IMG/VR virus record: IMGVR_UViG_3300032327_000792
Length of the DNA: 64,000 bases
Direction: 5' to 3' (one strand)
DNA from: a virus
Taxonomy: Duplodnaviria; Caudoviricetes
Part shown: piece after piece, positions 3,936 to 62,722 of the stretch
Numbering within the stretch: position 1 is the stretch's first letter
How the letters are laid out: the number at the start of each line of letters is the position of its first letter
Translations under genes and position numbers: made by a program
The notes under the pieces: model-generated
Database searches by the model: none
What the model saw: only the letters and a program-made list of their open reading frames with translations
Told to the model about the DNA's origin: nothing

Positions 3936-4310
3936 ATGGCCACATTCATTGGATTCAACACACAAGATCAGTTTAAAAAATTTACCCTGGTGGATGATGC
4001 ACTGATCAAGCGCGACTTGCTAAATGCACTAAACATACGTCAAGGGCAACTGGTGGGACGCCCTGGGTATGGCACAGCACTTTGGGACAATTTGTTTGAA
4101 AATCAAACCAACGAAACCGAAGCAGCAATCACTAGAGAAATACAACGTGTTGCAGGTGGAGATCCTCGGTTGCAAATCTCCAGTGTGGACATATTTCCCC
4201 AGGAAAACGGCATGCTAATACAGTTGGAATTAACCATTGTGCCCAGCACCGATGCTGAACGTTTGAGCATATTTTTTGATCAACAAACACGCCAAGCCAG
4301 TTATATTTGA
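3936..4310 (+). CDS. gp25-like baseplate wedge subunit (GPW/gp25 family)
   Basis: 124 aa; 'LIKRDLLNALNIRQGQLVGRPGYGTALWDNLFE...DPRLQI' matches the gp25 pattern; sits between gp5-like and gp6-like genes. Confidence 0.88.
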   Translation: MATFIGFNTQDQFKKFTLVDDALIKRDLLNALNIRQGQLVGRPGYGTALWDNLFENQTNETEAAITREIQRVAGGDPRLQISSVDIFPQENGMLIQLELTIVPSTDAERLSIFFDQQTRQASYI

Positions 4311-4340
4311 CATCTTAAACTGAGCCGTTTTTCACTGCCA

Positions 4341-4346
4341 TAAATA
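4341..4346 (+). promoter_or_regulatory. T4-late-like TAAATA box
   Basis: CATAAATATAAGACCATG upstream of the 1143-aa wedge gene. Confidence 0.55.
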
Positions 4347-4353
4347 TAAGACC

Positions 4354-7300
4354 ATGGCAAAGACTACTAGACAGACAGCAATATTTGGCGTTGAAGATTG
4401 GAAAAGAATCTATCAAACCTATCGTGAAGCAGACTTCCAAAGCTACGATTTTGAAACTCTACGCAAGAGTTTTGTAGACTACTTACGTCTTTACTACCCC
4501 GAAACATTCAATGACTACATTGAATCATCAGAATTTATTGCCATGCTTGACGTTATGGCTTTTATGGGCCAAAGTTTGGCCTTCCGTACAGATTTAAACA
4601 CACGTGAAAACTACATTGACACAGCTGAACGTAGAGATTCGGTAGTACGTCTTGCCAATCTAGTAAGCTATACTCCAAAGCGCAATATTTGCTCATCAGG
4701 ATACTTAAAAATATTCAGTGTACAAACCACAGAAAATGTCACAGATTTCAACGGTATTGATTTGGCCAATGTAACCATAAACTGGGCAGATCCTACAAAT
4801 TTTAATTGGCAAGAACAGTTCACTGCAATTATCAATGCTAGTTTGGTTGATAGTCAACGTATTGGTCGTCCTGGCAATCGTACTACTATTTTAGGAGTAG
4901 ATACCAACGAGTACAGTATCAATCTTGTTCCTGGATTCCTACCAGTAATACCTTATAACTCTACCATTGATGGTATCAACATGCCATTCGAAGCTGTAAA
5001 TGCCAGCACCATTGGTCGAGACTATGTGTACGAACCAAGTCCACGACCCAACGGCATATTCAACATGCTGTTCCGCAACGATCAGTTGGGATTTAACTCG
5101 GCCAACACAGGTTACTTCTTTTTGTTCAAGCAAGGGGTGTTGCAAAATCAAGATTTTAATTTGGCTGACCGTGTGAGTAACCGAGCAGTGAACATCAATA
5201 TTGAAGGCGTCAATAACGATGACCGTTGGTTGTATCAACTTGATAATGTGGGCTCAATTGCCAGCGAGTGGAATTTTGTTGAAAGTGTATACGGCGCGGC
5301 CGCTGAGCAGACTGCTCCAAATTTACGCAAACTTTTTTCTGTGTCATCTCGCACCAACGATCAAATTACATTGAACTTTGGCGATGGTGTGTTTTCTGAA
5401 ATTCCAGTGGGACAGTTTCGTGCATATGTGCGTGCATCCAACGGGTTGGAATACATTATCAACCCAGAAGAAATGCAATCAGTGGTATTGCCAATTAGCT
5501 ATGTAAGTCGAACAGGACAACTCGAAACAATTACATTTACCTGTGGAATTTCTACACCTGTGTCAAACGCCACGGCGCGAGAAAGCATTGACGAAATCAA
5601 ACAACGTGCTCCTGCCAGATATTACACACAAAATCGTATGGTCAACGGGGAAGATTACAATAACTTCCCCTTCACAGCCTACAATTCAATTTTAAAATCC
5701 AAAGCATTGAATCGTGCCTCAATTGGCACCAGTCGTTACCTTGAATTGGTTGACAACACTGGCAAGTACGCCAGCACAAATGTGTTTGGCAGTGACGGTG
5801 CGCTGTATGAATCTTTTAACTTGCCTAGTTTTCAGTTTAGCTTCTTGACCAACAATGAAATTTCCAGTGTAATTACCAACCGGGTTCAACCCTTGCTGAC
5901 ACAAAGTCAAAGCATACAATTTTATTATTCTAAATTTCCTCGTCCTTCATTGATACCGTTGAATGTGGGATGGAATCTAAGTACCAGTTTGGCCAATTCA
6001 ACCACAGGTTACTTTACCAATGCTACCGATGCCGCAGTACCAATTGGTCCATACACCAGCGATAACAAAAAGTATATTGTGATTGGAAGTTTAGTCAAAT
6101 TTGTTCCACCTGCCGGATATTATTTTGATTCCAACAATAGACTTAAAGCAGGCACTCCTACCCGAGCTGACGAGAAGTTGGTTCTATGGGCAAGCCCAAT
6201 TGCAGTGGTATTAGATGGTACCAACAACGGACTAGGCAATTTACCCGATGGGTCTGGACCAGTGGCATTAAACAACTACATACCAACAGGTGCTGTGGCC
6301 ACAGAAGTAATTCCAATTTTTGTTACAGATTTACCAACCACATTTGAGCAGAGTATGGCTGAACAGATTCGATTGAATCGTGACTTTGGTATAGGTTATG
6401 ACAGTATTGGGAGTATTACAGGCACTGCTGGAACATGGTACTTGATTACCAGTACTAACTTGGCAATCAATGCATCATGGAGTCAGACTTTTGCAGGCAG
6501 TACAGCCGGTACAAATCTTGATGCTAGCTGGTTTGTGCAATTTGTCACTGATGGTAGCACATACACAGTGAGTTCTCGAGCCCTGGATTATTATTTTGGT
6601 AGTGTGTTACAAACTAGATTCTTCTACTACGGGGATCAACTGATCTACGACAGTCGTACAGGCACTGTGATCAGCGACTTCGTCAATGTGTTAAAAACAA
6701 ATTCAAGACCAGATTCAGCATTACCGCTGTCTGGTGACACACGCCTTAAAATTGTTGGTCAGCCAGTACAAAGCGATGGATTTGTAGACGACTTTCAAGT
6801 GTTGGTATCGTTTAGCGATGCTGACAGCGACGGTATTCCTGACAATCCAGATTTCTTTGATGAAATTGTGGCACCAACTGCAACTGTTACTTCTACATCG
6901 CCTTGGGTGTTTTTACAAAAAACCGTGGACTTTGACAATCTTGAAAGATATCTTTTGGTCGAACAAGGCATTGTAAATTCTGAATATGCAACACTAGATG
7001 ATATTGAATTGGTCAAAACAGAATATGTTGACGGTCAAGTCTTTTATGCGTACTCCAGTGAAATATTCTATACCCTGGTTATTGACACAACTACTTTTGT
7101 AAGAACGTTGGTAGTAAACAATGAATTTATTGCTAGAACTGGCCGACAAGATCTGTATTTTCAATACAGACACAACAGTCCATTGACCAGTCGTATTGAT
7201 CCTGGCACAACCAACATCATTGATCTCTATGTAGTGACCAACGAGTACTATGTTGCTTATCAGAATTATATTCGAGACGTTACTGGAACAGTTCCAGAAC

Positions 7301-47640: not shown

Positions 47641-47820
47641 TTAGGCTCCGTAGTATCCTTGAGAATTTTCAAGATTTCGATCTTGCAACAGTTGATCTAC
47701 TTTAAGTACAGCTTCGGCTCGTTCTTGATCAGTCATTTCGTAGCACTTGGGCTGGCGAGCAAGATCACGCATCAAAGGATAGCTAAAATTTGGTTGTGGC
47801 TGAAACAATCGTCGGATCAT
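47641..47820 (-). CDS. Hypothetical protein (59 aa)
   Basis: ATGA-coupled start at 47820 (MIRRLFQPQ...). Confidence 0.6.
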   Translation of the reverse strand: MIRRLFQPQPNFSYPLMRDLARQPKCYEMTDQERAEAVLKVDQLLQDRNLENSQGYYGA

Positions 47821-49100
47821 TTGAATTCCTCGTAGTAAGCATGCTGTCCCCATGGCGGAACCACGTTTGTATTGCCATGTATGATAAACACAGTATCACA
47901 ATAGTTTTCATCACCCCACGATCCAAATGGATAACCGTCAGTGAACATAATATGACGCTTGGGCTGGATATCATTTTCTTTGAAATATTCAAACACACAG
48001 TCAAAGTCAGTGCCACCACCACCGTGAATTTCATAATCCACTAGATTGTCCAAGTTCTCTGAATCGTAGGTAGCTGGATTGTACACAGCAGTATCAAACG
48101 AAATCACATGCAGTTTAAAAGCCGGAAAACTATCCATGATACCTTGAGTTTCCGATAGTATATCTTTGAGTACAGCTTCTCCCATGGATCCGGACGCATC
48201 AATACTGATAGCAAGATCAATCATTTCATCATTCTTTGTGCCCGGCATGATAGCATCCATGTGCCAACCACGTCTGCTGGCACGCATCCAGGTATAGTCT
48301 GACTTGATGGTTGACTCTAATTGCATACGCAACAGTTCACGCCAGTTCATCTTAGGCTCAGTCATGTCTTGAATGAGACGTTTGACACCTGCTGGTAAAT
48401 TGCCTGCACCGTCTGATGCTGCAACCGCCGCTAGTACAGCTTCTTTGATTTCGTCACGGATAGCGGCCTTGTCTGCAGCACTGAGTTTGGGACGACCTTT
48501 GCCATCTTTGCCTTCCCCTTCTCCGCCGGATCCTTTACCGTCTTCATCGCCGTCCATGTGCTCGTCCAACAACTTGTTGATCAGGTCGTCAATATTGATC
48601 TTTTCGGCGTTTTCATACAACTTGTCGTAGATTTCTTCGGAACTCATACCGTCGTATTTTGAATCATGCAAGCAAGGCACTGAAGTAATTTTTTCACCTA
48701 CTCTGTGTTTGACCAAGTCTGCGTTCACACAATAATCGTTGGCAATGTTCCAAAGCTGTGGGTCTCGATCACCCCTACGACCAAAGTGATCATACACACA
48801 ATGCAACACTTCGTGACCAAACAAGAACTCCAATTCTTTGGGACGAAGCATGTTTACAAAACGAGTATTGTAGTAGAAGTTACGACCGTCTGTGGCAGCA
48901 GTAGGACACCATTCGTCGGCATTGACCAATTTCAAACGAGTGGCCAAGTTACCAAAGAAACTGGCTCGTAGCAACAAACCCACACGAGCAGTGATCAGCT
49001 TTTCGCGTACATCACGATCTTCTGCAGGATCAGTTGGACCAATCAAATTGGCAAACTTGTCTGCTTCTTTGGAATCTGCTGTGGTACCTTTTGCGCTCAT
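47817..49100 (-). CDS. Putative metallopeptidase-vWA domain protein (DUF2201-type)
   Basis: 'TAATDG', HExxH 'GHEVLH', Gly/acidic linker, MIDAS 'IDASGS', 'GGGGTDF', 'FTDG'. Confidence 0.88.
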   Translation of the reverse strand: MSAKGTTADSKEADKFANLIGPTDPAEDRDVREKLITARVGLLLRASFFGNLATRLKLVNADEWCPTAATDGRNFYYNTRFVNMLRPKELEFLFGHEVLHCVYDHFGRRGDRDPQLWNIANDYCVNADLVKHRVGEKITSVPCLHDSKYDGMSSEEIYDKLYENAEKINIDDLINKLLDEHMDGDEDGKGSGGEGEGKDGKGRPKLSAADKAAIRDEIKEAVLAAVAASDGAGNLPAGVKRLIQDMTEPKMNWRELLRMQLESTIKSDYTWMRASRRGWHMDAIMPGTKNDEMIDLAISIDASGSMGEAVLKDILSETQGIMDSFPAFKLHVISFDTAVYNPATYDSENLDNLVDYEIHGGGGTDFDCVFEYFKENDIQPKRHIMFTDGYPFGSWGDENYCDTVFIIHGNTNVVPPWGQHAYYEEFK

Positions 49101-49206: not shown

Positions 49207-50298
49207 TTAGAATGCGTGACGAATGCCAAATCCAAATTGTTCAACTTCGGTTTTTGCCAATGAATCTTTAGTTTCAGTGTTGGATGCACCATAAGCAACA
49301 TAACCGGTTGTACGCTTGCTAAAAGCATATAGAGCAGCAACTTGATATCCGCTCAAGTCTTGTTTGGTTGTTGTGGTAGGTTTATTCTCGCCACTGAAGT
49401 AAGAGGTCTGGAGAGTCGTCTTACCGAATGGAATAGCAACGCCAACTTCTGCTACCTTCTTGTTGTTGATAACGTTGCTTGACCCATTGAGGTCTTTGCC
49501 TTGTGCGTAAGTAACAAAAGCCTTGGCCACTGTAAAGTCGTAGTTGGCACCAAACACCAACTGCTCCGGATTGCTACCGGTTGTTGCGCCAGCAATTCTT
49601 GCACCATCCAAAGTTTTATCTTCTTTGGAATAACCAATCATGGCATTCAGCTGGCCAGCTGAATAAGCAATACCCAGACCTGTTTCTTTTGCCTGATCTG
49701 CGGTTGTAACAGTAGTGGCTTGATTGTTACGCTCGCCAAATGCTGCTTGAATTGTAAATCCAGCAAAGTTTGGTGAGGTGTAGTTAATCAAGCGATCGCT
49801 ACGTGTGTTATTCAATTTTGTTGAGCTTGTGTAAGCACGACCAATAAAATTATTGCCTGCGCCAACGTCACCAACAAACCATGCTTTTTCAGAAATAGTT
49901 GTTTGACGGCCAATGTCCAACGAACCAAAAGAACCTGACAAACCAACAGTGGCAATACGAGTAGTCATATTACCAGCGGCATCAGTGCCCGAGTCTACGT
50001 CGGTAGCAGTACCATCAGTGTCGGACAAACCAAACTCATAGACAAAATTAGCTTTTAAACCACTACCTAGGTCTTCGGTACCTCTAAAACCCAAACGGCT
50101 TGATGTATAAGCACCGCCATTGCCTGTGGTTTTATCTTTGACTGATGTGGTTACACCAGCTGTACTGGTCGTATCAGTGGTTGTTGAGGTAATACCGCCG
50201 TCAACAATGCCGTATATGGTAATTGTGGATTGAGCGTGTGCTGTTGTTACAAACAATGACGATACCAAAACCGCCATTAACATTTTATTAAACTTCAT
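49207..50298 (-). CDS. Gram-negative general diffusion porin (Burkholderiales/Neisseria-type)
   Basis: Signal peptide ending AHA; 'ITIYGIVDGG', 'SRLGFRGTEDLGSGLKANF', 'YAFSKRTTGYVAY'; C-terminal 'GIRHAF' ending in Phe. Confidence 0.92.
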   Translation of the reverse strand: MKFNKMLMAVLVSSLFVTTAHAQSTITIYGIVDGGITSTTTDTTSTAGVTTSVKDKTTGNGGAYTSSRLGFRGTEDLGSGLKANFVYEFGLSDTDGTATDVDSGTDAAGNMTTRIATVGLSGSFGSLDIGRQTTISEKAWFVGDVGAGNNFIGRAYTSSTKLNNTRSDRLINYTSPNFAGFTIQAAFGERNNQATTVTTADQAKETGLGIAYSAGQLNAMIGYSKEDKTLDGARIAGATTGSNPEQLVFGANYDFTVAKAFVTYAQGKDLNGSSNVINNKKVAEVGVAIPFGKTTLQTSYFSGENKPTTTTKQDLSGYQVAALYAFSKRTTGYVAYGASNTETKDSLAKTEVEQFGFGIRHAF

Positions 50299-51211: not shown

Positions 51212-52297
51212 TTAGGCAGATGCCTGTAAAATGTACTTGCCATAACGCTGATGGAATTCATCAAAGTTTTTCAGCTTAGTAGGCTGGAACGGTAAGTTAT
51301 AAGTGGTAAGAGCAATTCTAGCACCCATTACAACCAACTCAGTTTCAAAGTTCTTCATCATGTAAGCAAAGAAGCGGTCTGCCATTTCGTGGAACTGTTT
51401 GTCTGCAACCTTCTTCTCCACAGCACCTTTTAGTTCGTAGCACATAGAGATCACCAATGAGTACATGGCCGATACTTCTTTGACATCCAAGGTATCAACC
51501 TTGCCTGCCAAGATATCTTCTGGCCGGGGCATACGTCCAGCAATCTTACGATGAGCCATAAACTTCACAGCCAGGCCTTCGCCTACTGTGCCTGCTACCA
51601 AGTTGGTGATAGTGTCATCGTCGCCATCTTCGTCCTCCAACAATTCACTTACGAATGTCCATGAACGTGGTGTAGCAAAAGCGCGACTAGCAGATTTGGC
51701 ATCAAATTCATACAAGTCTTGTTTGGCAAAACTCAAATAACCCACCACATCCTTGTGGATGTTGTTTTGAACTGCCCACTCTTGCCAAGAAGCAAAGTCT
51801 ACCTTCATTTCTTGGTGCACAAAACGATTGGCCAACGGCGTGGGCATACGATATGTAACGCCACGGTCGCTTTCACGGTTACCTGCAGCCACCATGACCA
51901 CATTCTCGGGCAAGACGTATTTGCCAACTCGGCGATTCAAGATCAGTTGATAGGCAGCGGCCTGTACTGACGGAGCCGCAGAGTTCATTTCGTCCAAGAA
52001 CAATATCACAACTGGATAGTCTTTGGCAAATTCTTCTGTAGGCAAATCCACTGGTTCAGCCCAGTCCATTTTGCCTGAGTCCTTGTTGTAGAAAGGAATA
52101 CCACGAATGTCAGTGGGCTCCATTTGACCCAAACGTAAGTCAATCATGTAACCACCTAGTTCTTTGGCCAAGTCGGCAACCAACTCAGACTTACCAATAC
52201 CAGGAGGACCCCATAGGAACAATGGGCGTTGTTTTTTAAATGCTTTGAGCAAACTCTTACGAGCTTGAACCGAAGTAACTGTTCTTGTTTCTGACAT
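51212..52297 (-). CDS. MoxR-type AAA+ ATPase
   Basis: Walker A 'GPPGIGKS', 'EPTDIRGIP', Walker B 'LFLDEMN', 'AAGN', 'PLANRF', 'TPRSW'. Confidence 0.9.
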   Translation of the reverse strand: MSETRTVTSVQARKSLLKAFKKQRPLFLWGPPGIGKSELVADLAKELGGYMIDLRLGQMEPTDIRGIPFYNKDSGKMDWAEPVDLPTEEFAKDYPVVILFLDEMNSAAPSVQAAAYQLILNRRVGKYVLPENVVMVAAGNRESDRGVTYRMPTPLANRFVHQEMKVDFASWQEWAVQNNIHKDVVGYLSFAKQDLYEFDAKSASRAFATPRSWTFVSELLEDEDGDDDTITNLVAGTVGEGLAVKFMAHRKIAGRMPRPEDILAGKVDTLDVKEVSAMYSLVISMCYELKGAVEKKVADKQFHEMADRFFAYMMKNFETELVVMGARIALTTYNLPFQPTKLKNFDEFHQRYGKYILQASA

Positions 52298-52344
52298 GGC
52301 TGTGTCCTTAATCAAAGTTTAACAAAATTTAATACTGTAGAACT

Positions 52345-52476: not shown

Positions 52477-52821
52477 TTAATCTAGTCGGCTACCTGCGTA
52501 GGCACGGAAACCGTATTTCTCAAACACCTTCTGAGCGGCCAAGGCACCGGCTTCTTTGGTGTCAACGTTCTGAGCACCGTGTTCTGAAGGATTCCAAATT
52601 GAGAAACATTTCTTGTAGTCTGATCGTTCAATACCAGCGGCTTTTAGTGTTTTGCCTAGTTTGGTGTTGCCTTTGATACCGTAGATATCAACCCAAGCAA
52701 AACCACAGGCATACTGATCTTGTCCACCTAATCGGGTTTGAAAGTATTCATCAGCGGCCTTGCGAGCTTCTGCTTTGGCTTCTGCAACAATGTTTCGAAC
52801 TTGTTCTACTGTGTATTCCAT
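52477..52821 (-). CDS. Hypothetical early protein (114 aa)
   Basis: Has its own promoter and an AGGAG RBS; 'YACGFAWV' segment. Confidence 0.75.
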   Translation of the reverse strand: MEYTVEQVRNIVAEAKAEARKAADEYFQTRLGGQDQYACGFAWVDIYGIKGNTKLGKTLKAAGIERSDYKKCFSIWNPSEHGAQNVDTKEAGALAAQKVFEKYGFRAYAGSRLD

Positions 52822-53471: not shown

Positions 53472-54602
53472 TCAAAGACTATCATTGGTCGGTAACTGAA
53501 TTAGATGGCTAAATTGATCTTGTTCGCCGGTGAATTGTATGTTTAGAATATAACGATCAACATTGCTATCATTAACAACAGCATGTGCAAAATTTTTATT
53601 GTTGATTATGGCATCGCCGTCTGGAAGTAATCCAAACCCTGAAAACTTCATCATATGCCCTGGGCTTTCATTTAATTTTATGTACAGACCACGTAACCCA
53701 GTGTCAGCATCCAGTCTTGATTTTGAGTAACCGTCTATGTGTGGATACAGGCAACATCCAGCTGGAAGATAGCCAACCCAGGCTGAGAATATATTGGTAA
53801 CAGGCAGAGATGAAATAAAAGAATAAATTTCCGGTATATCACCGGGATCACAAGTGAGTCTCTGTTGCCATGATTTTGTGTTGTTGCATTCAGGATCAAC
53901 AATAAACCATAGTTGCCAATTACGAGGTTCGCCATCTATCACAGTCATAGTGAGCTCTCCTAGGGTCTTGTCTTCGATACAGGAAAATTTTTCTTGGTTG
54001 ATTGCACGTACAGCTTCGGTTAACATGAGTTTTTTTTGCGAACAATCTAATCCAGAGTTGTAAGATAGCCATGGTATGTTGTGGTTGTGTAACCAGTGGT
54101 CGAGATGTACATTGTCGTAACATCCAAAATCAGTGTTGAATTTAAAAAAGTCCTTTATTATCTTGGGCCACTTCTCAGATAAACTTATGGATTGCGGCCA
54201 AAAAATTTGTCGATGTTCACTGATATCTAGTCCAAGTAATCCATTGAAATGTTTAGTAGCTGTCAATCCAACCCAGGAGGCCAATGGAGACATAAAAGGC
54301 AAGGTCCATGTTTTTAAATATGAGTTAAGTTCTATACATGGTTGTATTTTAGACCCTTGGATAAGTTCTCCCCAAGAAAGATACAGTAAATTGTTTAAAC
54401 CCAAGCTATCCCCGTCTATTAAAACATCAACAATCTTATAGTCATTCAATGAATCAATTGTTAGATAACTTAAATTAAACAGTGTATAGTCAGCATCTAT
54501 CTGTACGTGGGTGTCATTGACTTGACAAACAATTGCAGGTTGTCCATTGATTTTAAATTTCAAATCATGTTGATAAGCACGGTCAAATATAATAGTAATC
54601 AT
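53472..54602 (-). CDS. Protein with a C-terminal 2OG-Fe(II) oxygenase-like (Asp/Asn beta-hydroxylase-like) domain
   Basis: 'YLPAGCCLYPHIDG' (HxD)...'FAHAVVN' (distal His)...'DRYIL' (Arg); roughly 200-aa N-terminal region of unknown function. Confidence 0.65.
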   Translation of the reverse strand: MITIIFDRAYQHDLKFKINGQPAIVCQVNDTHVQIDADYTLFNLSYLTIDSLNDYKIVDVLIDGDSLGLNNLLYLSWGELIQGSKIQPCIELNSYLKTWTLPFMSPLASWVGLTATKHFNGLLGLDISEHRQIFWPQSISLSEKWPKIIKDFFKFNTDFGCYDNVHLDHWLHNHNIPWLSYNSGLDCSQKKLMLTEAVRAINQEKFSCIEDKTLGELTMTVIDGEPRNWQLWFIVDPECNNTKSWQQRLTCDPGDIPEIYSFISSLPVTNIFSAWVGYLPAGCCLYPHIDGYSKSRLDADTGLRGLYIKLNESPGHMMKFSGFGLLPDGDAIINNKNFAHAVVNDSNVDRYILNIQFTGEQDQFSHLIQLPTNDSL

Positions 54603-55297
54603 AGATCAACTTGAATTATTCGATCACTATTATTTTCTAACAAAAATTTTTGTGTTTTTTCAGTCACGGTACCCGAAATTTGCAACATGGGTCTTGGCCA
54701 CCACCCCATGTTGCAGGTACTATGAGGTATGTCTCGATATTCCCAAGTGATACAATCCCCAGCTTTCCACTGAGTCCAGTTGGCATTGCCTAGTTGAAAA
54801 ATCTGTCCCCATCTCCAGTCCTCGAGCATGACAGCAAATCTACGACCTGGGTTGCCATCTCGTTCAAATCCGTCAAGATAGTCCATGTGGGTGACCAACA
54901 AATGACCAGTCTGTTGTAAATTAAAACGAATGTCGTTGTTTTCCATACCGATAATTGCGGACATTTTTTTAAACAATGGTTCATCATCTCCAAATGCTCG
55001 ATCAAACATAATTTGGTCAGGATCAAATCCAGCTTGTTTGTGATCCAGTTGTTCAGCTAGTGCGTTTTTTAACGGATCGTTGGCTGGGTATTGTTTTCGA
55101 ACACCAGTTGCCCACGTAATAGATTCTACTTGTTTTTTGTATTTTTCAATTATAGGGGCAAAGTCAGCAATAAATCTTCCAACAGGACTATAGCTATCAA
55201 TCCCCAGTTCAGGAGGACGAAACGGATCAAAGTGCCAGTTACTTCGGTCACGGGTGAATTGCCACCGCGACCCTTTGTATTCATTGTTTTTTTGCAT
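54599..55297 (-). CDS. 2OG-Fe(II) oxygenase-like protein
   Basis: 'QQTGHLLVTHMD'...'WKAGDCITW...IPHST...PRPML'; start could be 55297 or 55336. Confidence 0.7.
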   Translation of the reverse strand: MQKNNEYKGSRWQFTRDRSNWHFDPFRPPELGIDSYSPVGRFIADFAPIIEKYKKQVESITWATGVRKQYPANDPLKNALAEQLDHKQAGFDPDQIMFDRAFGDDEPLFKKMSAIIGMENNDIRFNLQQTGHLLVTHMDYLDGFERDGNPGRRFAVMLEDWRWGQIFQLGNANWTQWKAGDCITWEYRDIPHSTCNMGWWPRPMLQISGTVTEKTQKFLLENNSDRIIQVDL

Positions 55298-56828
55298 GAT
55301 TGAGTTTGTTTGATTTATATTGGTTGATAAATTCAAGAGTAGTTTTTAACAACATGGATTTTGGTACATTGGGTATCACATTGTGATATCCCCAGGTACG
55401 CATTTCGTCAACTGTTAGTCCAGTGTAAGAATGTTCAAATATAGCCCACGGACTCCACTTTCTAGTAACACTTTTTTCATTCAATGACATTGCTTGTTTA
55501 CTGGCATCAAAGTAATTTTTACCAGTGCTAGAATTTTTCCAAAGTATAAGTTTTTTTCTTACAGTGTCTCTTGCAAATGATGCCTGTTGAATAGTTGAAT
55601 CTCCCAATTCTTGTTTTTCTTTTTCGGCCAGTTCGCTAATTTCACGATCTGATAGCTCAACATATCCATACATAAGAGCATTTCTACTGAACTCGCTGTT
55701 GTGAATAGTAAATTTAGGATTAGGCAAATACAAAGGTTGCCACGACCAATGGTCTATGCCGCTTTCTTTTTCATACCATTCGTTGGCGTCCCAACACTCT
55801 TCGTCGCGTTGATACGGCAAGCCAACAATGTTGGAACAAGTTATATGAGTACGTGGCAAATCTTCACGGCATCGAATAATGCCTTCTTTGATACGATTTG
55901 GATCCATGCCCTTGCCTATTGCTCGGCCTGCTTGTTGATTAAAAGTTTCTATGCCAAAGTGAACACCCCGCATACCCATTTCCCCCATGAGTTTGGCCAT
56001 GGTGGGGTTTGAGATCATTAACTCCATTTTAGCGTAGCACATAAACTCAATGTTGAATGGCAATTTTTCCAATGCAGAATGAAGACTCTCAATCTTGATA
56101 AGACTATCGTTGAACGTGTCTTCGCTGATAAAATATTTGTTTACTCCCCATGTTTCGTAGTTGAATTTTATTTCATCTACCAAACTCTGAATGTCGCGTA
56201 GATAGTCTAGTTTTTTCTTGCCTATCAATGGATAGGTACAAAATTTACATTTGAACAAACATCCTCTTGCAGTTTCTAACGCTACTGCTTCATTTGGCTG
56301 TATGTAATCACTGTCGAGATAAGAAATAGTAAGATCACTGGTATCAATCTCTTTGTAATCTTCATTGCAAGAAATAAAATTTTTGTCAGTTCTAAACGTA
56401 CTCCATCGAACACCTTCTCTGGGTATTTGTTTTTTGAGATAGCGTATAAAATCCAAAATTGCCTGCTCGGCGTAACCTTCAATGTAGTAGTCAATATTCT
56501 GTGAGGTGCGACTCAACAAATTATTTCCGCCAATTACCACAGGCTTGTCAGGATAAAGTTCTTTCCATTTAGAGGTCAACGGATCCACAGCCGAGTCATT
56601 GGTGATAAGGTTGGCTGCTATGCCCAAAAACAGTGTTTCGGGCCCAACAAACATATCCATGGCCTGACACCACTCATCCATAGTCCAGTGAGTAACAAAG
56701 TCAATGACCTCTACGGTGTATCCATGTTGTCTAAGATGAGTGGCAATTCTATGGGCACCACTGGCACGAGAAATACCACTACCGCCATCTATAAAATTGT
56801 TGTCGCCAATGATCAGTATGTCGGCCAT
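55281..56828 (-). CDS. Radical SAM enzyme with an N-terminal cobalamin-binding-like domain (class B methyltransferase-like)
   Basis: N-terminal 'GAHRIATHLRQHGYTVEVID...PVVIGG', 'ETARGCLFKCKFC', 'SEDTFN', 'FGIETFN', 'IVGLP'. Confidence 0.85.
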   Translation of the reverse strand: MADILIIGDNNFIDGGSGISRASGAHRIATHLRQHGYTVEVIDFVTHWTMDEWCQAMDMFVGPETLFLGIAANLITNDSAVDPLTSKWKELYPDKPVVIGGNNLLSRTSQNIDYYIEGYAEQAILDFIRYLKKQIPREGVRWSTFRTDKNFISCNEDYKEIDTSDLTISYLDSDYIQPNEAVALETARGCLFKCKFCTYPLIGKKKLDYLRDIQSLVDEIKFNYETWGVNKYFISEDTFNDSLIKIESLHSALEKLPFNIEFMCYAKMELMISNPTMAKLMGEMGMRGVHFGIETFNQQAGRAIGKGMDPNRIKEGIIRCREDLPRTHITCSNIVGLPYQRDEECWDANEWYEKESGIDHWSWQPLYLPNPKFTIHNSEFSRNALMYGYVELSDREISELAEKEKQELGDSTIQQASFARDTVRKKLILWKNSSTGKNYFDASKQAMSLNEKSVTRKWSPWAIFEHSYTGLTVDEMRTWGYHNVIPNVPKSMLLKTTLEFINQYKSNKLNHAKKQ

Positions 56829-56830
56829 TT

Positions 56831-57703
56831 TTATTGTCCGTAAATGTTTCGGAAAATTTCTCTACGCTGTAGGTACTCTTTCCAAAGATCCTTTCTAGTT
56901 CCTGTGTTGGTTTGAAAATAACCAGAATCAAGTTGAGTTTTCAACGGTGCGCCAGATTTAAGCATGGCCGAGAAATCTTTGTGTAACTGATCTGCTGATC
57001 CATTTTTTATCACAGCGGTGTACATAAACTGGAAATCCACAAATTTTCCTTTTGGAATCATTGTTTTAATACCAGGAAAATGTCGATCACTGTCCCCCAT
57101 TTTAGCCAAGCAACTCATACGACCTTCTTGTACCATTGGTACAACTCGAGACTCCGCCGTGGCAATCCAATCAATTTCTCCACTCAACAGTCCAGTGGTC
57201 ACTTTTCCTCCGGTGGTGTATGGCACTGGCTGAAGATTACTGCCAATGTTTTTGTTGATATCTTTGACTACTTCAGTCCAAAAATCATGTGGAAATGGGA
57301 ATCCAAAGGTTTTGCCATTTTTAAAACTGCCAAGATCAGCATTGGCATTTCCTCGGGTGCAAATAACCTGCGCCTGACTGGTCAAAAACACCAAATTTGT
57401 TTGTGTAATCGGAACACCGCAGTTGTGCTTGTCAAGTTCATTGCTGAGCCAGTGGTCGCCGTAAAACACAAACAAAAGATTTTCTCCTTTGAATTTATGG
57501 TAGATTTCCACAGCTTTGGTACAGTTACCCGCATTAATAACTTCAACTGTGTCGTATTTGGTCTTGAGTTCAGTGACCACAGTGTTGATAAATTCGTGTG
57601 CAATGCTCCCGGGACTTTCGCCCTGAAGCACGGTGATTTTTGTTCCGGCCCAGACAGCACTGGCCATAAAAAACGAAAGCATAATAGTAAAAATTTTAAA
57701 CAC
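56831..57703 (-). CDS. Bug/TctC-like periplasmic solute-binding protein
   Basis: Signal peptide ending AVWA; 'VPYTTGGKVTTGLLSGEID' resembles the Bug/TctC motif VPYKGGAPAxxDLLGGxVD. Confidence 0.7.
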   Translation of the reverse strand: MFKIFTIMLSFFMASAVWAGTKITVLQGESPGSIAHEFINTVVTELKTKYDTVEVINAGNCTKAVEIYHKFKGENLLFVFYGDHWLSNELDKHNCGVPITQTNLVFLTSQAQVICTRGNANADLGSFKNGKTFGFPFPHDFWTEVVKDINKNIGSNLQPVPYTTGGKVTTGLLSGEIDWIATAESRVVPMVQEGRMSCLAKMGDSDRHFPGIKTMIPKGKFVDFQFMYTAVIKNGSADQLHKDFSAMLKSGAPLKTQLDSGYFQTNTGTRKDLWKEYLQRREIFRNIYGQ

Positions 57704-57786
57704 AGATATTCCTCCAATAAAAATATATATTACACTATTTTTCCATGATAGTCAATCTAAATGGCTTGCAATATCTTGCTACGGAC

Positions 57787-57877
57787 GGCGTTAGGGATTT
57801 CCCATACAAGTGTCGAACTTTTGCGTCGTTTGGATTCCGGCGTCACTGACAAATGGCGCTGCTCACAAATATTTATA
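57787..57877 (-). ncRNA. Candidate structured 5' leader of the TctC-like gene (motif copy C) with an exact TATAAATA box
   Basis: Minus strand: TATAAATA-N6-AGCAGCGCC...TGACGCC...ACT-[GGG-AAAT-CCC]-AACGCC; GC-rich relative to its flanks. Confidence 0.4.
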
Positions 57878-59192
57878 ATAAAAATTTCAGCCTTATCAAA
57901 TTTTCTACTGCATGATTACTGATGGCAAACGCAAATATCAAAATATAAAAATTAGTGCGCCAAAAAATTGTAGCTATGGTTAGGCCAAAGATCAATGTTC
58001 CAACATATTCTGGCAAACTGTATTCATTGATACCAGTCCAAATCACAGCAAACAACAATAAAACACCAATTAGCCACATGGTTTTGTGCCTTAGCCACAG
58101 ATAAAATTTAACCAGCAGTTGACTCAATGAGCCACTGATCACATAACTCAATATGCCCACCGCAGTTAACCCTATCAGCAGATTGACAATCAACTCGGTA
58201 TTAAAATTATAAAGAGAAAACACATGCCCTTTGCTAGAAATAATAGAATACAACAAACTTTCGCTGACTGTGATAGGAACACCAAACAACAACAACGGCA
58301 ACATGCAACTTATGGCTGCTGCATTATTGGCTGTTTCTGCGGCAGTGACACAGCCTACACTGCCATTGGCATCATATGTTTTTTTGCGTTTTTCAATGTA
58401 TTGTTGAAGTTTGTAACTGACATTGCTGGCAATGTCAGTGGTCAGCCCTGGCGTAAGTCCAAATAAAAATCCCACAAAACTGTAAAAAATTGCTGTGGTC
58501 CAATGAGTAAATTTTTCAACTTTGTTTTGCACTTGTTCGACCACAGCAACAGCAATAGTTTGGTGATTGCGTACAAGGTTGGGCATTATGTACAATCCAG
58601 CCAACAATGGTATCAATGGCAAAGATTGATCAATTTTGATAATTTCTAGATCAACGGTAAAATCATACATAGAACGCTGACCAATGGTGCCCAGCAGTAG
58701 TCCAGTTGCAATTTGCAAAATTCTACTGAGCCAACTTTTTTCCGGGCTTATAAAACACACCGCTATCAGCACAACCACAACAATCAAAACTTGAAAACTG
58801 GTGCGATACCAGGATGCAATCCAGTCTACAGCGATGTTAACTGAACTAAAAATTATCAATGCTATTACCGTGGCAATTAAACTGCCAATTGCAGCAGATT
58901 TAATTGCAATAGGTCCTCGTCCTTGCTGAAAAAGACGAAATCCTTCAACCGTGGCAGTGTAGCTACTGGTTTCTCCTAATATGCCAAAATGTGTGGCCAC
59001 AACACTGCCCACAAATTGTGAAGTCAACATCACTGCCATGAACCAACTCAGACACTGTATAACAGTCCAGTCATTCAACAATGGCCAACACAGTATAGTA
59101 AAACTCAATATACCTACACCGGGCAACAGTCCACTTACAATGCCTGTTGCAAATCCAAACAACAAAGGCAATACTATATCAGGACTGATCAT
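57873..59192 (-). CDS. tctA: TctA-like large membrane subunit of a tripartite tricarboxylate transporter
   Basis: Many hydrophobic segments; 'SGLLPGVG', 'GLTPGL', 'AAETANNAAAISCMLPLLLFGVPIT' resemble TctA signature segments. Confidence 0.8.
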   Translation of the reverse strand: MISPDIVLPLLFGFATGIVSGLLPGVGILSFTILCWPLLNDWTVIQCLSWFMAVMLTSQFVGSVVATHFGILGETSSYTATVEGFRLFQQGRGPIAIKSAAIGSLIATVIALIIFSSVNIAVDWIASWYRTSFQVLIVVVVLIAVCFISPEKSWLSRILQIATGLLLGTIGQRSMYDFTVDLEIIKIDQSLPLIPLLAGLYIMPNLVRNHQTIAVAVVEQVQNKVEKFTHWTTAIFYSFVGFLFGLTPGLTTDIASNVSYKLQQYIEKRKKTYDANGSVGCVTAAETANNAAAISCMLPLLLFGVPITVSESLLYSIISSKGHVFSLYNFNTELIVNLLIGLTAVGILSYVISGSLSQLLVKFYLWLRHKTMWLIGVLLLFAVIWTGINEYSLPEYVGTLIFGLTIATIFWRTNFYILIFAFAISNHAVENLIRLKFLL

Positions 59193-60367
59193 AAATCAAA
59201 GCCTTGTGGGAAAAGATCGTCCACTGTGGAAACTTTGTGTTGGTCCAACGACCAAAAATGACTGAATATACCTGTGCTATTTTTAACAATGTTACCAGTG
59301 TTAAAAAACTGAGATTTTTGAGACCACAGTTCACGATCCAGTAATTTTCTGTAATGGTCATAATAAAATCCATTGCTGTGATCTAAAAATCGCTGAGCCA
59401 TTACGTTGAATCCATGATCGCCGTGTTGATCAAACAATTTGCCGTGTTGCCATTGTAGCCAACTGATATTGTTCAAATCAAACTCATTGCCACGTTCAAG
59501 AGCAAGATTCTTGCTGGTCAAATCGTGATTTAGTTGCCATATTTGTTTTTCATCAAGGCCGTGAGTTTTTTGTTGAAATGCTTTTTTCAGCATGTGACAT
59601 TGTTTGACAAATAGGTCAGGCGCAGAAGGAGACAAATGAAACATCTGTAGTCCTGGCACACCGTGCATGCCGGCAATTTGACTGTCAATTATGGTAGCCC
59701 ACCATTCACCATTGCGGTGTAATATGTTGGGCTTGGGCTCTCCTGTGACATTGGCCACTGTGGCATATTTTTGATAAGCATCCAGTAATTGTGGATCAAT
59801 GTCGTGACTGACTGATATGTTTCTGGCAAACATAGCATTGAACTCATGTTTGAACATGTACAAATACCAATCTTGATTCATGTTGCGCTGAAACCAATCG
59901 TTGTGATATTCAATGGTTCTAAACCGAGTACGAGGGAACATCTCTTGCAACTGACCCAACAAAGGAGTTACCAATTGATCAGTTTCAATATTTACAGGAT
60001 TGCCTTGCTGAGTCATTCCTGACCAACGCATGGTTATTACTTCGTCTGGTGCGCACCCAGCATGGTAAAAACTCATTAGAGCAGTGTGACTATCTGCGCC
60101 TCCACTGTACCATAGCCTGACCCAGTCGTGTGAATCTCGTATTTCTCGGGCACGCTGTCTGCATAGTTCTTGATAAGTTTCGGAGGGTTCAATACTCCAG
60201 TTTATGGCATCAAGCGAGCTGTGAAAACAATCATATTTGATCATTCCAACATCGGTGGTAGACAGAATGGCCGACAGCTTGTGATAAAAAATCTGATCGT
60301 GTACTCGCCATATTGGCAATTGGGAGTTACCGATTAGACTTTGCCAATTTTTTGGATCAATTATCAC
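59189..60367 (-). CDS. PP-loop (N-type ATP pyrophosphatase-like) enzyme
   Basis: 'WVRLWYSGGADSHT' contains the SGGxDS P-loop; substrate unknown. Confidence 0.7.
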   Translation of the reverse strand: MIIDPKNWQSLIGNSQLPIWRVHDQIFYHKLSAILSTTDVGMIKYDCFHSSLDAINWSIEPSETYQELCRQRAREIRDSHDWVRLWYSGGADSHTALMSFYHAGCAPDEVITMRWSGMTQQGNPVNIETDQLVTPLLGQLQEMFPRTRFRTIEYHNDWFQRNMNQDWYLYMFKHEFNAMFARNISVSHDIDPQLLDAYQKYATVANVTGEPKPNILHRNGEWWATIIDSQIAGMHGVPGLQMFHLSPSAPDLFVKQCHMLKKAFQQKTHGLDEKQIWQLNHDLTSKNLALERGNEFDLNNISWLQWQHGKLFDQHGDHGFNVMAQRFLDHSNGFYYDHYRKLLDRELWSQKSQFFNTGNIVKNSTGIFSHFWSLDQHKVSTVDDLFPQGFDL

Positions 60368-60585
60368 AGAATTGTCTGGGTTGTCAAATTCAATTGCATG
60401 ATTTCAAAACTGGCATTAAATGCACGAACAACATCACCGGGTACACATAGTTGGTGTCCGTGTATTTCTTTATCGGCCGGAAGCAAGAAACATTGTTGTC
60501 CAAATGCTTGTTTTTCAAAAAATATTGTTTGACGGTGCGTGATGTTGACGTCTGTCCAACATCCTGGTTGTAAGATTATTTCCAT
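60364..60585 (-). CDS. Hypothetical protein (73 aa)
   Basis: Overlaps both neighbours; ATGA-coupled downstream. Confidence 0.55.
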   Translation of the reverse strand: MEIILQPGCWTDVNITHRQTIFFEKQAFGQQCFLLPADKEIHGHQLCVPGDVVRAFNASFEIMQLNLTTQTIL

Positions 60586-61301
60586 ATTTTGTGCGCTAGG
60601 TTTGGGTTGAGTCTTGGATCTACTGAAATCATCAAATTGTATCTGACAGTGTTGCTAAAATTGCAAGCATGGTGCGGAGTTCCCCAGTCCCAAGTAAAGG
60701 CCTGACCTTGTTGCCATGGGTGAAAATTATGATTACCTATGTTGAAATATTGTCCCGGAACATGATCTTCTAAAAAAACCACAATTTTTCTTTCAAACGG
60801 CTCGTCAAACCTGCTGGGTCGTTCCGGGGTGTGACCATAGATATGGTCAATGTGATTCATAGTAATACACCCAGGTCTTTGCACAGCCAATCGCATGCCC
60901 GACAAGTTGGCCTTCAGAGCATGTTGACTGGTCTGGGAAGTAATCACAATGTTCAGTTGATTTTCAATTTTGCTGACCAGCTCCGGGCACTGATCAATAT
61001 CAATATACACAATGTTGAACCATTCTTTGTCAGTGTCAATAATTTTGTCAACAAATCGTTCGGCTATTTCTTGTTTGTCCACAATAACTTCAGGATCTGG
61101 GTGCGGCAAAAGATATAACCCAGTGGTAAATGCAGTGCGTTTGTCCCAGGTTTGCTTGCCTAGTTGTATAATATCTCTGCACAGATCCGCCGACAGGCAA
61201 TGAGCCAATGTGGTATAATCCTGGCCAGAGATTGTTGGATCAAAGTGCCAGTGCCCTCGTTCAAGATGGCCACGCTCTCTTTTGTTTAGGAAAAAAGACA
61301 T
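60576..61301 (-). CDS. 2OG-Fe(II) oxygenase-like protein
   Basis: 'QRPGCITMNHID'...'WQQGQAFTW...TPHHA...VRYNL'. Confidence 0.7.
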   Translation of the reverse strand: MSFFLNKRERGHLERGHWHFDPTISGQDYTTLAHCLSADLCRDIIQLGKQTWDKRTAFTTGLYLLPHPDPEVIVDKQEIAERFVDKIIDTDKEWFNIVYIDIDQCPELVSKIENQLNIVITSQTSQHALKANLSGMRLAVQRPGCITMNHIDHIYGHTPERPSRFDEPFERKIVVFLEDHVPGQYFNIGNHNFHPWQQGQAFTWDWGTPHHACNFSNTVRYNLMISVDPRLNPNLAHKIWK

Positions 61302-61326
61302 TTATAAACTCCAATGATAAGATTAT

Positions 61327-61355
61327 ATTATACTGTGTTGATTACACAGTGTCAA
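61327..61355 (-). promoter_or_regulatory. Consensus sigma70 promoter
   Basis: TTGACA-17 nt-TATAAT upstream of the operon starting at 61301. Confidence 0.78.
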
Positions 61356-61400
61356 CAGATATATTTTGAATTGAGATATAAGATAATTTACAGTGACCCG

Positions 61401-62057
61401 TTACAGTGGAACGCCGGTAATACGTAAGATCCATCGAGAATCAAATCCAAAATTGGCACTGCCATGAGGAACATCTCGCTGATTCCAAGTGTATACATCC
61501 CCAGCTTTCCATTTAATAAATTCTTTGCCCATTTGAAAAGCCTGCCCATATTGCCAATCATCACAAAAAATTAAAATTTTGGTTGATACTGGGTCTTGCT
61601 GTAGATCCGTCAGTGGTATTTTGTAATCTTGAAATTTAGGCCTATCAATGTGAAGCAGTACAAATTGACCCGGATGTTGCAATTGAATGCCCATACTTAC
61701 TGTGCCTGGGCGTAGATTGAATTTTTTATAACTGAGCTCTTCAATTTCTCGGCGAATGTCTGCCGGAATAATCGGCCGATCAATATTACTGTTATCAACT
61801 ACATCTTTGTATTCCGAATCAAAAAATAATTTTTTAATTTCTTCGGAATCTAGCCCAGGACATTCTATAGTATCTACGTACTCTTTACTAAAGAAATTAC
61901 CATCTTCCTTGTCAAGTTCTCCGCGACTATATCTTAGTTTGAGCTCTGTAATCAGTGATTCAAGATCATGTTTTATGTTGGCGATTGGTTTTGTAGCGGC
62001 ATGCCAATCAAAATTAACAACCTGATTTTTAATTTGATAATCATACCAATACTTCAC
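61401..62057 (-). CDS. 2OG-Fe(II) oxygenase-like protein
   Basis: GTG start after AGGAGA; 'QHPGQFVLLHID'...'WKAGDVYTW...VPHGS...SRWIL'. Confidence 0.7.
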   Translation of the reverse strand: MKYWYDYQIKNQVVNFDWHAATKPIANIKHDLESLITELKLRYSRGELDKEDGNFFSKEYVDTIECPGLDSEEIKKLFFDSEYKDVVDNSNIDRPIIPADIRREIEELSYKKFNLRPGTVSMGIQLQHPGQFVLLHIDRPKFQDYKIPLTDLQQDPVSTKILIFCDDWQYGQAFQMGKEFIKWKAGDVYTWNQRDVPHGSANFGFDSRWILRITGVPL

Positions 62058-62119: not shown

Positions 62120-62722
62120 TTACATTGTAGGTCCGTTACCGTTCCTAAATCCTATTACACCGCCTTCGGCCTCTATCCGTTTGATAACATCTTCGAACAG
62201 GATGGGTGCAAAGTCAGTATGTTCCACGCACACACAATGATAACGAACGTCGTTTTCATCACTGTACAATACTTCACCTGTGTGGGCATCAACACCGCGA
62301 GCTTTTTTAACACGGTTGGCGTGTAAGTGTCCGTGGATGTTTACACCAAACCGTCCCAACGATTCTGCGTGAACAGGAATATGACTGAGAATCATACCGT
62401 TCATGACATGGTAAGCTCTAAGCTCACGGAAGTATTCACGATATTCATCATCACGGAAGATATCGTGGTTACCTCGGATCAACACTTTATCCCCGTTTAA
62501 CCGAGCCAATGTAGGTAATGCCCGTCGGTTAATGACTACATCGCCCAAGTGATAGACTTTGTCTGTGGGCCGGACCCGCTCGTTCCAGGCTGCTATCATG
62601 AACTCATCCATTTCGTCTGGGTCTGTCCATGGGCGCAACTTTGTAACTCCATCGTTGCGTGTGAAGCGGCAGACGCCAGCGTGTCCGAAATGCGTGTCGC
62701 TTACTAAAAATACACTAGGCAT
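62120..62722 (-). CDS. Calcineurin-like metallophosphoesterase
   Basis: 'SDTHFGH', 'HLGDV', 'GNHD', 'SHIP', 'HGHLH'. Confidence 0.92.
   Translation of the reverse strand: MPSVFLVSDTHFGHAGVCRFTRNDGVTKLRPWTDPDEMDEFMIAAWNERVRPTDKVYHLGDVVINRRALPTLARLNGDKVLIRGNHDIFRDDEYREYFRELRAYHVMNGMILSHIPVHAESLGRFGVNIHGHLHANRVKKARGVDAHTGEVLYSDENDVRYHCVCVEHTDFAPILFEDVIKRIEAEGGVIGFRNGNGPTM

Follow-up and report, generated by a model that had tools for sequence, protein, structure and literature searches.

A phage gene cassette that joins a short TctA permease, a divergent TctC-type binding protein and a PP-loop enzyme: a candidate uptake-and-tailoring module

Layout of the cassette

Nine minus-strand open reading frames (ORFs) lie at positions 53472-62057 of the window, the whole 64-kb stretch of DNA analyzed here, which covers positions 1-63995 of the 74.6-kb IMG/VR virus record IMGVR_UViG_3300032327_000792. 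Numbered g1 to g9 in the direction of transcription, they encode four proteins of the 2-oxoglutarate (2OG)-Fe(II) oxygenase type (g1, g2, g8 and g9), a small soluble protein (g3), a PP-loop enzyme (g4), a short TctA-type permease (g5), a TctC-type solute-binding protein (g6) and a cobalamin-type radical S-adenosylmethionine (SAM) enzyme (g7). The transporter's conserved partner is the PP-loop enzyme, not the oxygenases. A first-pass annotation made from the DNA letters alone had located the nine ORFs and called the oxygenases, the PP-loop enzyme, TctA, TctC and the B12-type radical SAM enzyme; all nine ORFs are present, and each of these family calls was upheld on checking. The phage origin of the DNA is also secure, as the source is an IMG/VR virus record and tail and baseplate genes lie within the window. 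CheckV places the record at 22% of a genome of roughly 310-345 kb, and a protein of the record is found on a 310-kb contig too.

The genes are mostly coupled, as described at first pass. Neighboring ORFs overlap by 4-10 nt at g2/g3, g3/g4, g4/g5 and g8/g9, g7 overlaps g8, and a gap of 2 nt separates g6 from g7. The g4/g5 overlap is 4 nt, both in the window and in close relatives. There are two real gaps in the cassette, one before g2 and one before g6, and both contain promoter-like sites. The shared orientation of the nine genes is not special, since all large ORFs from about 43.5 kb to the end of the window are on the minus strand.

A transporter pair without TctB

The permease g5 (57873..59192, minus strand; 439 aa) is a short form of TctA. 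It matches the Pfam TctA model (PF01970) at E 1.8e-51, with 175.5 bits for a cut-off of 28.9, over model positions 4-412 of 423. Its clade, made up of proteins of 420-451 aa that come from metagenome contigs only, stands apart from the bacterial TctA proteins of ~500 aa. Aligned with bacterial TctA, the clade is shorter by ~15 residues at the N-terminus and by ~55 at the C-terminus, and the conserved motifs are kept. A tblastn search with TctA against 50,697 cultured and deposited phage records returned just four weak matches, which resemble bacterial-type TctA in contaminated or short records, and no hit came from a pattern scan of viral contigs that used TctA alone.

The next gene, g6 (56831..57703, minus strand; 290 aa), is predicted from its signal peptide and from profile homology to encode a secreted and very divergent TctC-type solute-binding protein. 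Its N-terminus is hydrophobic, and a signal peptide is predicted in all members of its clade. Taken alone, g6 reaches the Pfam TctC model at E 3.7e-4 with 20.5 bits, below the cut-off of 27, and a profile built from its clade only finds a solved TctC in the PDB at E 0.008. Once bridging phage TctC sequences are included, the profile aligns over its full length with 7ndr, BugE, BugD and Bug27 at E 4.6e-23. Among 100 ESM Atlas neighbors of g6, 76 fall in TctC-bearing sets. In TctC proteins the signature P-F-x-A-G-G-x-x-D positions the waters that hold the ligand carboxylate, and a second beta-turn completes the "pincer" (PMC5812351). This signature is degenerate here: it reads Q-G-E-S-P-G-S-I-A-H in the clade of the window and ends in P-G-G-G-G-V in a relative (L009), with loss of the aspartate. 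The second pincer loop of g6 has G-F-P-F-P-H-D in place of G-x-G-S-G. As g6 is without the carboxylate pincer signature, its ligand need not be citrate-like.

The first-pass annotation had remarked on the absence of TctB, and the absence holds. No small ORF with a transmembrane (TM) segment exists at 47.8-63.8 kb, PF07331 gives nothing at E<=1 in the 74.6-kb record, and the 73-aa product of g3 is not a TctB, as it has no TM segment. In the relatives, no TM-rich small ORF is found beside TctA. A distant TctB copy, or the use of a host TctB, is possible, given that the record holds just ~22% of the genome. In archaea, TctA occurs without TctB or TctC, and it has been argued from this that the core of the transporter is TctA (PMC5812351). 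With classical TctABC systems the cassette shares a near-full TctA domain that carries the G-LPG-G, PGE-SS and AETANNA-type motifs, together with a secreted Bug/TctC homologue encoded beside it. It differs from them in having no TctB, in a TctA shortened at both ends and in a binding protein whose signature and second pincer loop are lost. A further difference is that this importer is encoded by a lytic-type phage and is partnered with a PP-loop enzyme in all the short-TctA contexts sampled.

The PP-loop enzyme and its family

Gene g4 (59189..60367, minus strand; 392 aa) encodes a PP-loop ATP-pyrophosphatase-type enzyme with SGGADS at residues 88-93. Sequence comparison leaves it without a family: there is no Pfam or NCBIfam match at E<=0.01 and no sequence match in the PDB, and a profile built from 15 homologues does not reach any PDB chain at E<=1. 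The motif Y-S-G-G-x-D-S is invariant across these 15 homologues. The AlphaFold2 (AF2) model of g4 (predicted local distance difference test, pLDDT, 82.8) has a PP-loop fold. When it is compared by VIA-align with 48,161 chains, the top five are AsnB (Z 10.3), human ASNS (9.7), beta-lactam synthetase (8.9), TsnB9 (7.3) and carbapenam synthetase (7.2), in alignments that cover 258-286 residues, and generic PP-loop proteins score Z <=7.1. Foldseek and VIA-align also match LarE, NAD and NMN synthetases, TtuA and GMP synthetase. A shape search of the ESM Atlas gives Asn_synthase clusters at template modeling (TM) scores of 0.50-0.59 over residues 4-364. Judged from its predicted structure, g4 is a PP-loop enzyme with the synthetase-domain shape of asparagine synthetase B.

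Only ~60 residues precede the synthetase core, and there is no N-terminal cysteine; g4 has no N-terminal nucleophile (Ntn) glutaminase domain. The comparison with the synthetase domains of the AsnB family (1ct9, human ASNS, 1jgt, 1q15 and 7ylz) therefore has two sides. The SGGxDS motif and the synthetase-domain shape are shared, and by analogy adenylation of a carboxylate followed by attack of a nitrogen would be expected. In contrast, g4 lacks both the Ntn glutaminase and a match to PF00733, often exists as a pair of tandem paralogues, and belongs to what is essentially a virus-only group. Because g4 is closer to the carboxylate-adenylating amide synthetases than to the tRNA-modifying PP-loop enzymes, a small-molecule substrate is favored over RNA. 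A sulfur-transferase role of the LarE/TtuA type was considered and rejected, as the family has no invariant cysteine.

The family is large: clustering at 50% identity gives 1651 clusters, of which 597 lie at E<=1e-30, and the ESM Atlas neighbors of the g4 family are all viral. In these sequence comparisons it appears to be an essentially virus-only family that has not been named. When g4 and two distant members were searched by tblastn against the same phage records, no match was found. A pattern-based profile scan of 185,579 species genomes gave a single match (L043), on contig JAYQON010000124.1 of a metagenome-assembled genome. This 8.2-kb contig is binned as Bdellovibrionales, carries no other cassette gene and may be a mis-binned phage fragment. 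Most of the 23 PP-loop loci retrieved from IMG/VR with the family profile carry two or three tandem paralogues, all with the motif. The idea that one member of a tandem pair is a degenerate, non-catalytic subunit was discarded, since both copies keep SGGxDS or SGGxDT. In L013, a 122-aa ORF between TctA and the PP-loop gene (2787-3152) matches the N-terminal third of the enzyme, including YSGGTDS, and appears from its sequence to be either a split gene or a duplicate that has been truncated. In L006, a gene 4 kb upstream of the cassette (4014-5504) encodes a canonical, full-length Pfam Asn_synthase protein of 496 aa.

Conservation of the gene neighborhood

The first-pass annotation took the transporter and the enzymes to belong together, and PP-loop, TctC and TctA genes do co-occur in relatives. 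The comparison covers related contigs and loci, labeled L002-L043 and P0004. The transporter and PP-loop genes adjoin in many lineages of uncultured aquatic phages, and radical SAM and oxygenase-like genes recur in some. The trio of PP-loop, TctC and short-TctA genes is found as neighbors in at least seven phage lineages, at identities down to 25% and in shuffled orders. At 60-70% identity (L002-L008, seven contigs from two lineages), the order is g4-TctA-TctC-radical SAM-oxygenase-oxygenase, and the g2-g3 pair is inverted upstream. At 35-38% identity (L009, L014, L015 and the P0004 contig) it becomes g4-TctC-TctA; in L015 and P0004 there follow a gene for ~236-265 aa and one for ~69 aa, recognizably g2-like and g3-like in L015. 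In L013, at 25-28% identity, the order is TctC-TctA-fragment-g4. Starting from the TctA side, a PP-loop gene lies within two genes in 3/3 short-TctA contexts sampled. These are TctA-TctC-PP in the marine L037; PP-TctA-TctC in L039, followed by a B12-binding radical SAM gene and by a 248-aa protein with an HxD motif; and metallophosphoesterase-PP-x-x-TctA-280 aa-PP in L041.

From the PP-loop side the picture is looser. A TctC-type gene is present in the flank of 11 of the 23 IMG/VR loci and TctA in two. Two contigs of distant jumbo phages, with TctC genes of the canonical kind, carry TctC-PP-PP-TctC-porin-metallophosphoesterase-GT2-PstS and PP-PP-TctC-x-DctP-TctC-PP-porin. Elsewhere the enzyme has other company: a B12-binding radical SAM gene abuts it in L023, six oxygenase paralogues come after it in L017, an oxygenase comes before two PP-loop genes in L010, and it is accompanied by an ATP-grasp ligase in L018 and by a methyltransferase and a hydrolase in L027. 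Relatives of the cassette adjoin genes for T4 baseplate, gp46/47-like, UvsX-like and T4 RNase H proteins. A megablast search of the cassette against the deposited phage records gave no match, and PHROGs offered nothing useful for any of the nine proteins. As a separate observation, L020 (8665-17105) and L022 (5075-16445), on contigs of 209 and 349 kb, hold dense envelope and uptake islands around tandem PP-loop genes, with two or three TctC, a DctP of TRAP type (tripartite ATP-independent periplasmic), a porin, a PstS-like protein, a Bax-inhibitor-1 membrane protein and a CMD-family protein.

Oxygenases, their small partner and the radical SAM enzyme

All on the minus strand, g1 (61401..62057; 218 aa), g2 (60576..61301; 241 aa), g8 (54599..55336; 245 aa) and the C-terminal half of g9 (53472..54602; 376 aa) are paralogues, with H, D, H, N and R invariant in their alignment. 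The HxD motif lies at residues 136-138 in g1, 150-152 in both g2 and g8, and 288-290 in g9. The HxD...H triad (H150, D152 and H210 in g2 numbering) is invariant in 16 homologues and present in g1, g8 and g9. A Pfam Asp_Arg_Hydrox match is seen for g2, and it is weak (E 0.002, 18.5 bits for a gathering score of 22.6); g1, g8 and g9 have none. The AF2 model of g2 (pLDDT 79.4) shows a double-stranded beta-helix, for which Foldseek gives AspH as the best match (E 9.4e-8), then PHD2 and a bacterial prolyl 4-hydroxylase (P4H). There are 390 matches at E<=1e-3, and nearly all of the 50 matches listed are 2OG-type oxygenases. The paralogues thus share the fold and the HxD...H triad with 2OG-Fe(II) oxygenases of the AspH/prolyl-4-hydroxylase type (PF05118, PF13640; AspH 6yyy, PHD2, Pseudomonas P4H 4j25). 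They differ from these in falling below Pfam thresholds, in being four in one block, and in the fusion of one of them to an N-terminal domain without a family.

The four genes are not equally conserved. Orthologues of g2 exist at 58-65% identity in L002-L008, and a g2 homologue follows TctA in L015. Those of g8 (67% identity) lie directly 3' of the radical SAM gene in L002-L008, where a second gene of ~235 aa downstream of the radical SAM gene is 26-28% identical to g1. The true start of g8 is probably an internal ATG near residue 14. The two-part g9 has no homologue in any relative examined and no family match in Pfam, NCBIfam or PHROGs; its first ~230 aa are without a family. The 73-aa g3 (60364..60585, minus strand) is 51-60% identical to its counterparts in L002-L008, is recognizable after the g2-like gene in L015, and is paired with g2 wherever it is found; on the P0004 contig its position is held by a 69-aa gene. 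It has no family match, and an ESM Atlas look-up gave no usable lead. Conservation extends over its whole length with no leader/core pattern, as judged from four homologues, too few to exclude one.

The radical SAM gene g7 (55281..56828, minus strand; 515 aa) encodes a probable cobalamin-type, class B-like enzyme with CxxxCxxC at residues 190-197. It matches Pfam Radical_SAM at E 4.6e-17, and its cluster cysteines are C190, C194 and C197. In NCBIfam, every one of its top matches is a family of B12-binding radical SAM proteins, among them the PhpK family at E 5.5e-22; the scores all fall far short of the cut-offs, and these alignments begin at residues 24-25. No named subfamily (PhpK, HpnJ, BzaD or others) includes g7, the best score being 77.8 bits for a cut-off of 600. 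The Pfam B12-binding model gives no match to g7 at E<=0.01, and orthologues have a weak match to PF02310. The L039 gene in the position of g7 encodes a distant B12-binding radical SAM protein (PF02310, E 2.4e-10). In the lineage at 35-38% identity (L009, 7180-8472, and the P0004 contig), the trio adjoins a gene for a radical SAM protein that has a SPASM/twitch domain at its N-terminus.

Control regions

The first-pass annotation had placed a TTGACA/TATAAT promoter before the second oxygenase gene, and the site is a perfect one: the sigma-70-type consensus TTGACA-17-TATAAT at 61327..61355 (minus strand) scores 12/12 in a promoter scan. Its 17-nt spacer is filled by a perfect 6+6 palindrome, CTGTGT-5 nt-ACACAG, with the look of an operator. 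A repeated operator was considered and set aside, as the palindrome occurs once only in the window. The region cannot be aligned with the relatives because the g2-g3 pair is inverted there.

The 169-nt intergenic region before g6 (57704..57872, minus strand) contains a second promoter-like site, TTGACT-17-TAATAT at 57755-57727, and a GGAGG before the GTG start. The motif TATAAATA spans the stop codon of g5 and is found again 30 nt upstream of the g1 start. Two occurrences in the window, for 2.9 expected by chance, are no evidence by themselves. A T4-type late promoter was rejected for this motif, since its count is not above chance and it is absent from the plus strand, which carries the tail-fibre genes. 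The first-pass annotation had also placed a leader motif before g6. An Rfam scan of 53-63 kb yields no riboswitch and no other family, and the leader (57704-57872) folds no better than shuffled sequences (z +1.76). Its sequence, however, is conserved: the g5-g6 spacer has 77% column identity to L002 (5695-5869) and L006 (12369-12546), which exceeds what the 64-70% identity of the flanking proteins would lead one to expect. Among the blocks that are conserved are GCAGCGCC, TGCAAGCC and the -35 box. The spacer may be a regulatory element.

Proposed function and alternatives

AsnB, beta-lactam synthetase and CarA are established to act by adenylation of a carboxylate. A carboxylate importer beside a carboxylate-adenylating enzyme would thus be chemically coherent, and the cassette can be read as an uptake-plus-tailoring module for a small anionic solute, a reading that we hold with about even confidence. 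What is established in it are the gene families with their folds and catalytic motifs, and the recurrence of the neighborhood. The cassette would serve a T4-like jumbo phage of fresh water as an auxiliary module that takes up a compound and tailors it. The solute, which possibly enters through a phage porin, would be captured in the periplasm by g6 and carried over the inner membrane by g5 without TctB. In the cytoplasm, g4 would adenylate its carboxyl group and join it to ammonia, to an amine or to an amine of its own, giving an amide or a lactam and also trapping the solute inside the cell. In this lineage, g1, g2 (with g3), g8 and g9 would then hydroxylate, and g7 methylate, the same scaffold. 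We infer the direction of transport, the action of g4 on the imported solute, the chemistry, and the sharing of this substrate with the oxygenases and the radical SAM enzyme.

The first-pass annotation had suggested a small-molecule or RNA/protein modification pathway with its own transporter, for instance one that supplies 2OG. The linkage of transporter and enzyme has been borne out, and the shape of the PP-loop enzyme favors a small molecule over RNA; the 2OG part is improbable. The suggestion has an obvious appeal, as four 2OG-type oxygenases stand beside a transporter of the dicarboxylate/tricarboxylate family, and 2OG is a dicarboxylate of the kind that tripartite tricarboxylate transporter (TTT) systems can carry. 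Yet the trio exists without adjacent oxygenases in L009, L013, L014 and L037, which makes an import of 2OG for the oxygenases unlikely. What stays constant beside the transporter is the PP-loop enzyme. There should be little need to import 2OG, an abundant central metabolite, and g6 lacks the canonical carboxylate pincer. The supply of 2OG as co-substrate is therefore very improbable.

Several observations weigh against an uptake-and-tailoring module. The pincer is degenerate in both loops of g6, so the solute may be no classical carboxylate. The enzyme g4 matches no AsnB sequence model, and Z values of 7-10 are moderate by the calibration of VIA-align, which makes its likeness to AsnB a resemblance of predicted shape and not a proof of function. 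No TctC is found in the flank of 12/23 PP-loop loci and just 2/23 have TctA; a tie to transport is thus not obligatory for the family. Since the accessory islands of phages are mosaic, the neighborhood may partly reflect common insertion sites. Finally, g9 is unique to this phage, and g1 and the g2-g3 pair shift position and strand among the relatives.

In a different account, the nine genes form a mosaic accessory island with two or more unrelated functions, in a genome segment that gathers accessory genes of host and phage origin. TctC and TctA, with the porin, would then boost nutrient uptake in the manner of cyanophage PstS, leaving other targets to the PP-loop enzyme, the oxygenases and the radical SAM enzyme. 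There are three likely transcription units, each with a promoter-like site. In close relatives the g2-g3 pair is inverted and g1 has moved, g9 has no counterpart, many PP-loop loci have no transporter genes, and the adjoining genes are miscellaneous (rubrerythrin, DUF3501, MoxR AAA and DUF2201). Unrelated functions would leave unexplained why the trio is kept through so many lineages, in shuffled order and to such low identity, with a PP-loop gene beside every short TctA sampled, and why the B12 radical SAM gene stays after TctC in the distant L039. We regard this account as unlikely. Another possibility, to which we attach a small probability, is the modification of a protein or peptide, either RiPP-like (ribosomally synthesized and post-translationally modified peptide) or on a virion protein, by isopeptide or macrolactam formation, by hydroxylation of Asp/Asn or Pro and by C-methylation, with g3 or a virion protein as substrate. 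AspH, PHD2 and the EF-Tu prolyl hydroxylase, the best fold matches of g2, are indeed enzymes that hydroxylate proteins, and the small conserved ORF g3 is coupled to g2 at each of its occurrences. Lasso-peptide cyclases are members of the AsnB family, and peptides are among the substrates that class B radical SAM enzymes methylate. But a protein target gives no reason for the partnership with a periplasmic binding protein and a permease. In addition, g3 is conserved throughout, without the leader/core pattern of a precursor in the four homologues available (a number too small to exclude it), and is missing from most loci, and Pfam and NCBIfam reveal no RiPP-typical protease or ABC exporter among the nine genes.

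The structural matches of g4 also evoke a beta-lactam-like or other bioactive secondary metabolite, made by an AsnB-type synthetase and tailored on its ring by 2OG oxygenases and a cobalamin radical SAM enzyme, on the model of the clavulanate, carbapenem and thienamycin pathways. Beta-lactam synthetase and carbapenam synthetase are among the five best structural matches of g4 (Z 8.9 and 7.2), and the same three enzyme superfamilies co-occur in thienamycin-type clusters. This is a resemblance at the level of superfamilies only, and AsnB scores higher (Z 10.3). Among the nine genes there is no Pfam match to a crotonase of the CarB/ThnE type or to another scaffold-building enzyme, there is no resistance or export gene, and the transporter suggests import. 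Of all the explanations considered, this one seems to us hardly credible. A bolder version of the uptake-and-tailoring module is that the short TctA and the PP-loop enzyme are one machine, in which the enzyme docks on the cytoplasmic face of the permease, shortened at its C-terminus and lacking TctB, and adenylates and amidates the solute as it emerges ("vectorial amidation"). It comes to mind because the enzyme stands beside every short TctA sampled, the genes often overlap and TctB is missing. Such a machine would amount to group translocation by a secondary transporter, an invention of phages that has spread among aquatic T4-like and jumbo phages; we consider it a long shot.

Relation to known viral uptake genes

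Auxiliary nutrient-uptake genes of phages are known mainly as single binding proteins, such as the pstS of cyanophages. A viral tctA appears among the auxiliary genes of SUP05 viruses, with its role given as unknown (PMC4164917, PMC6359870). A comparative survey of jumbo phages (PMC7824862) does not mention TctA, tricarboxylate, PP-loop or porin, and the module is not described in the literature searched. With cyanophage pstS and the tctA of SUP05 viruses, the cassette has in common that the phage supplies envelope uptake components during infection. It differs from them in joining a binding protein and a permease to a dedicated cytoplasmic enzyme and to tailoring enzymes, often near a porin. 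The parts belong to known superfamilies; by sequence comparison, what appears new is the combination, the short permease that lacks TctB and the virus-only enzyme family.

The phage would thus supply the periplasmic and inner-membrane legs of an uptake route, and perhaps the outer-membrane leg, beside a dedicated ATP-dependent enzyme. If a specific dissolved compound is indeed imported and converted, this would be a new viral rewiring of host metabolism in lakes and oceans, and would give a function to more than 1600 sequence clusters of uncharacterised proteins. For the poorly studied TTT family it would also offer a natural test of whether TctA works without TctB, and the product could be a new small molecule.

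Neighboring genes in the window

Other content of the window includes baseplate- and spike-like genes, a 4700-aa fibre-like ORF, sugar-tailoring genes, a porin and a MoxR/DUF2201 pair. The porin (49207..50298, minus strand; 363 aa; Pfam Porin_4, E 9.7e-45) is encoded 3 kb downstream of the cassette and is possibly the outer-membrane leg of the same uptake route. In L016, L019-L021 and L022, porins are found 2-5 kb from PP-loop/TctC genes. The cassette's immediate upstream neighbor, g0 (62120..62722, minus strand; 200 aa), encodes a metallophosphoesterase (Pfam Metallophos, E 1.1e-6) and is possibly one of its accessory genes. Homologues of g0 abut the PP-loop gene in L041, follow the porin in L022 and reach 67% identity in L027.

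Also downstream of the cassette are genes for a MoxR-type AAA ATPase (51212-52315, minus strand) and for a DUF2201 metallopeptidase/VWA protein (47817-49100, minus strand). They are syntenic in L002-L007 at 70-77% identity, and in the window the porin gene is inserted between them. A connection of this MoxR/DUF2201 pair with cobalamin metabolism was considered and set aside as mere speculation. A 114-aa ORF (52477-52821, minus strand) is 62-66% identical to ORFs in the otherwise distant loci L023 and L024, a conservation far above that of the adjoining genes.

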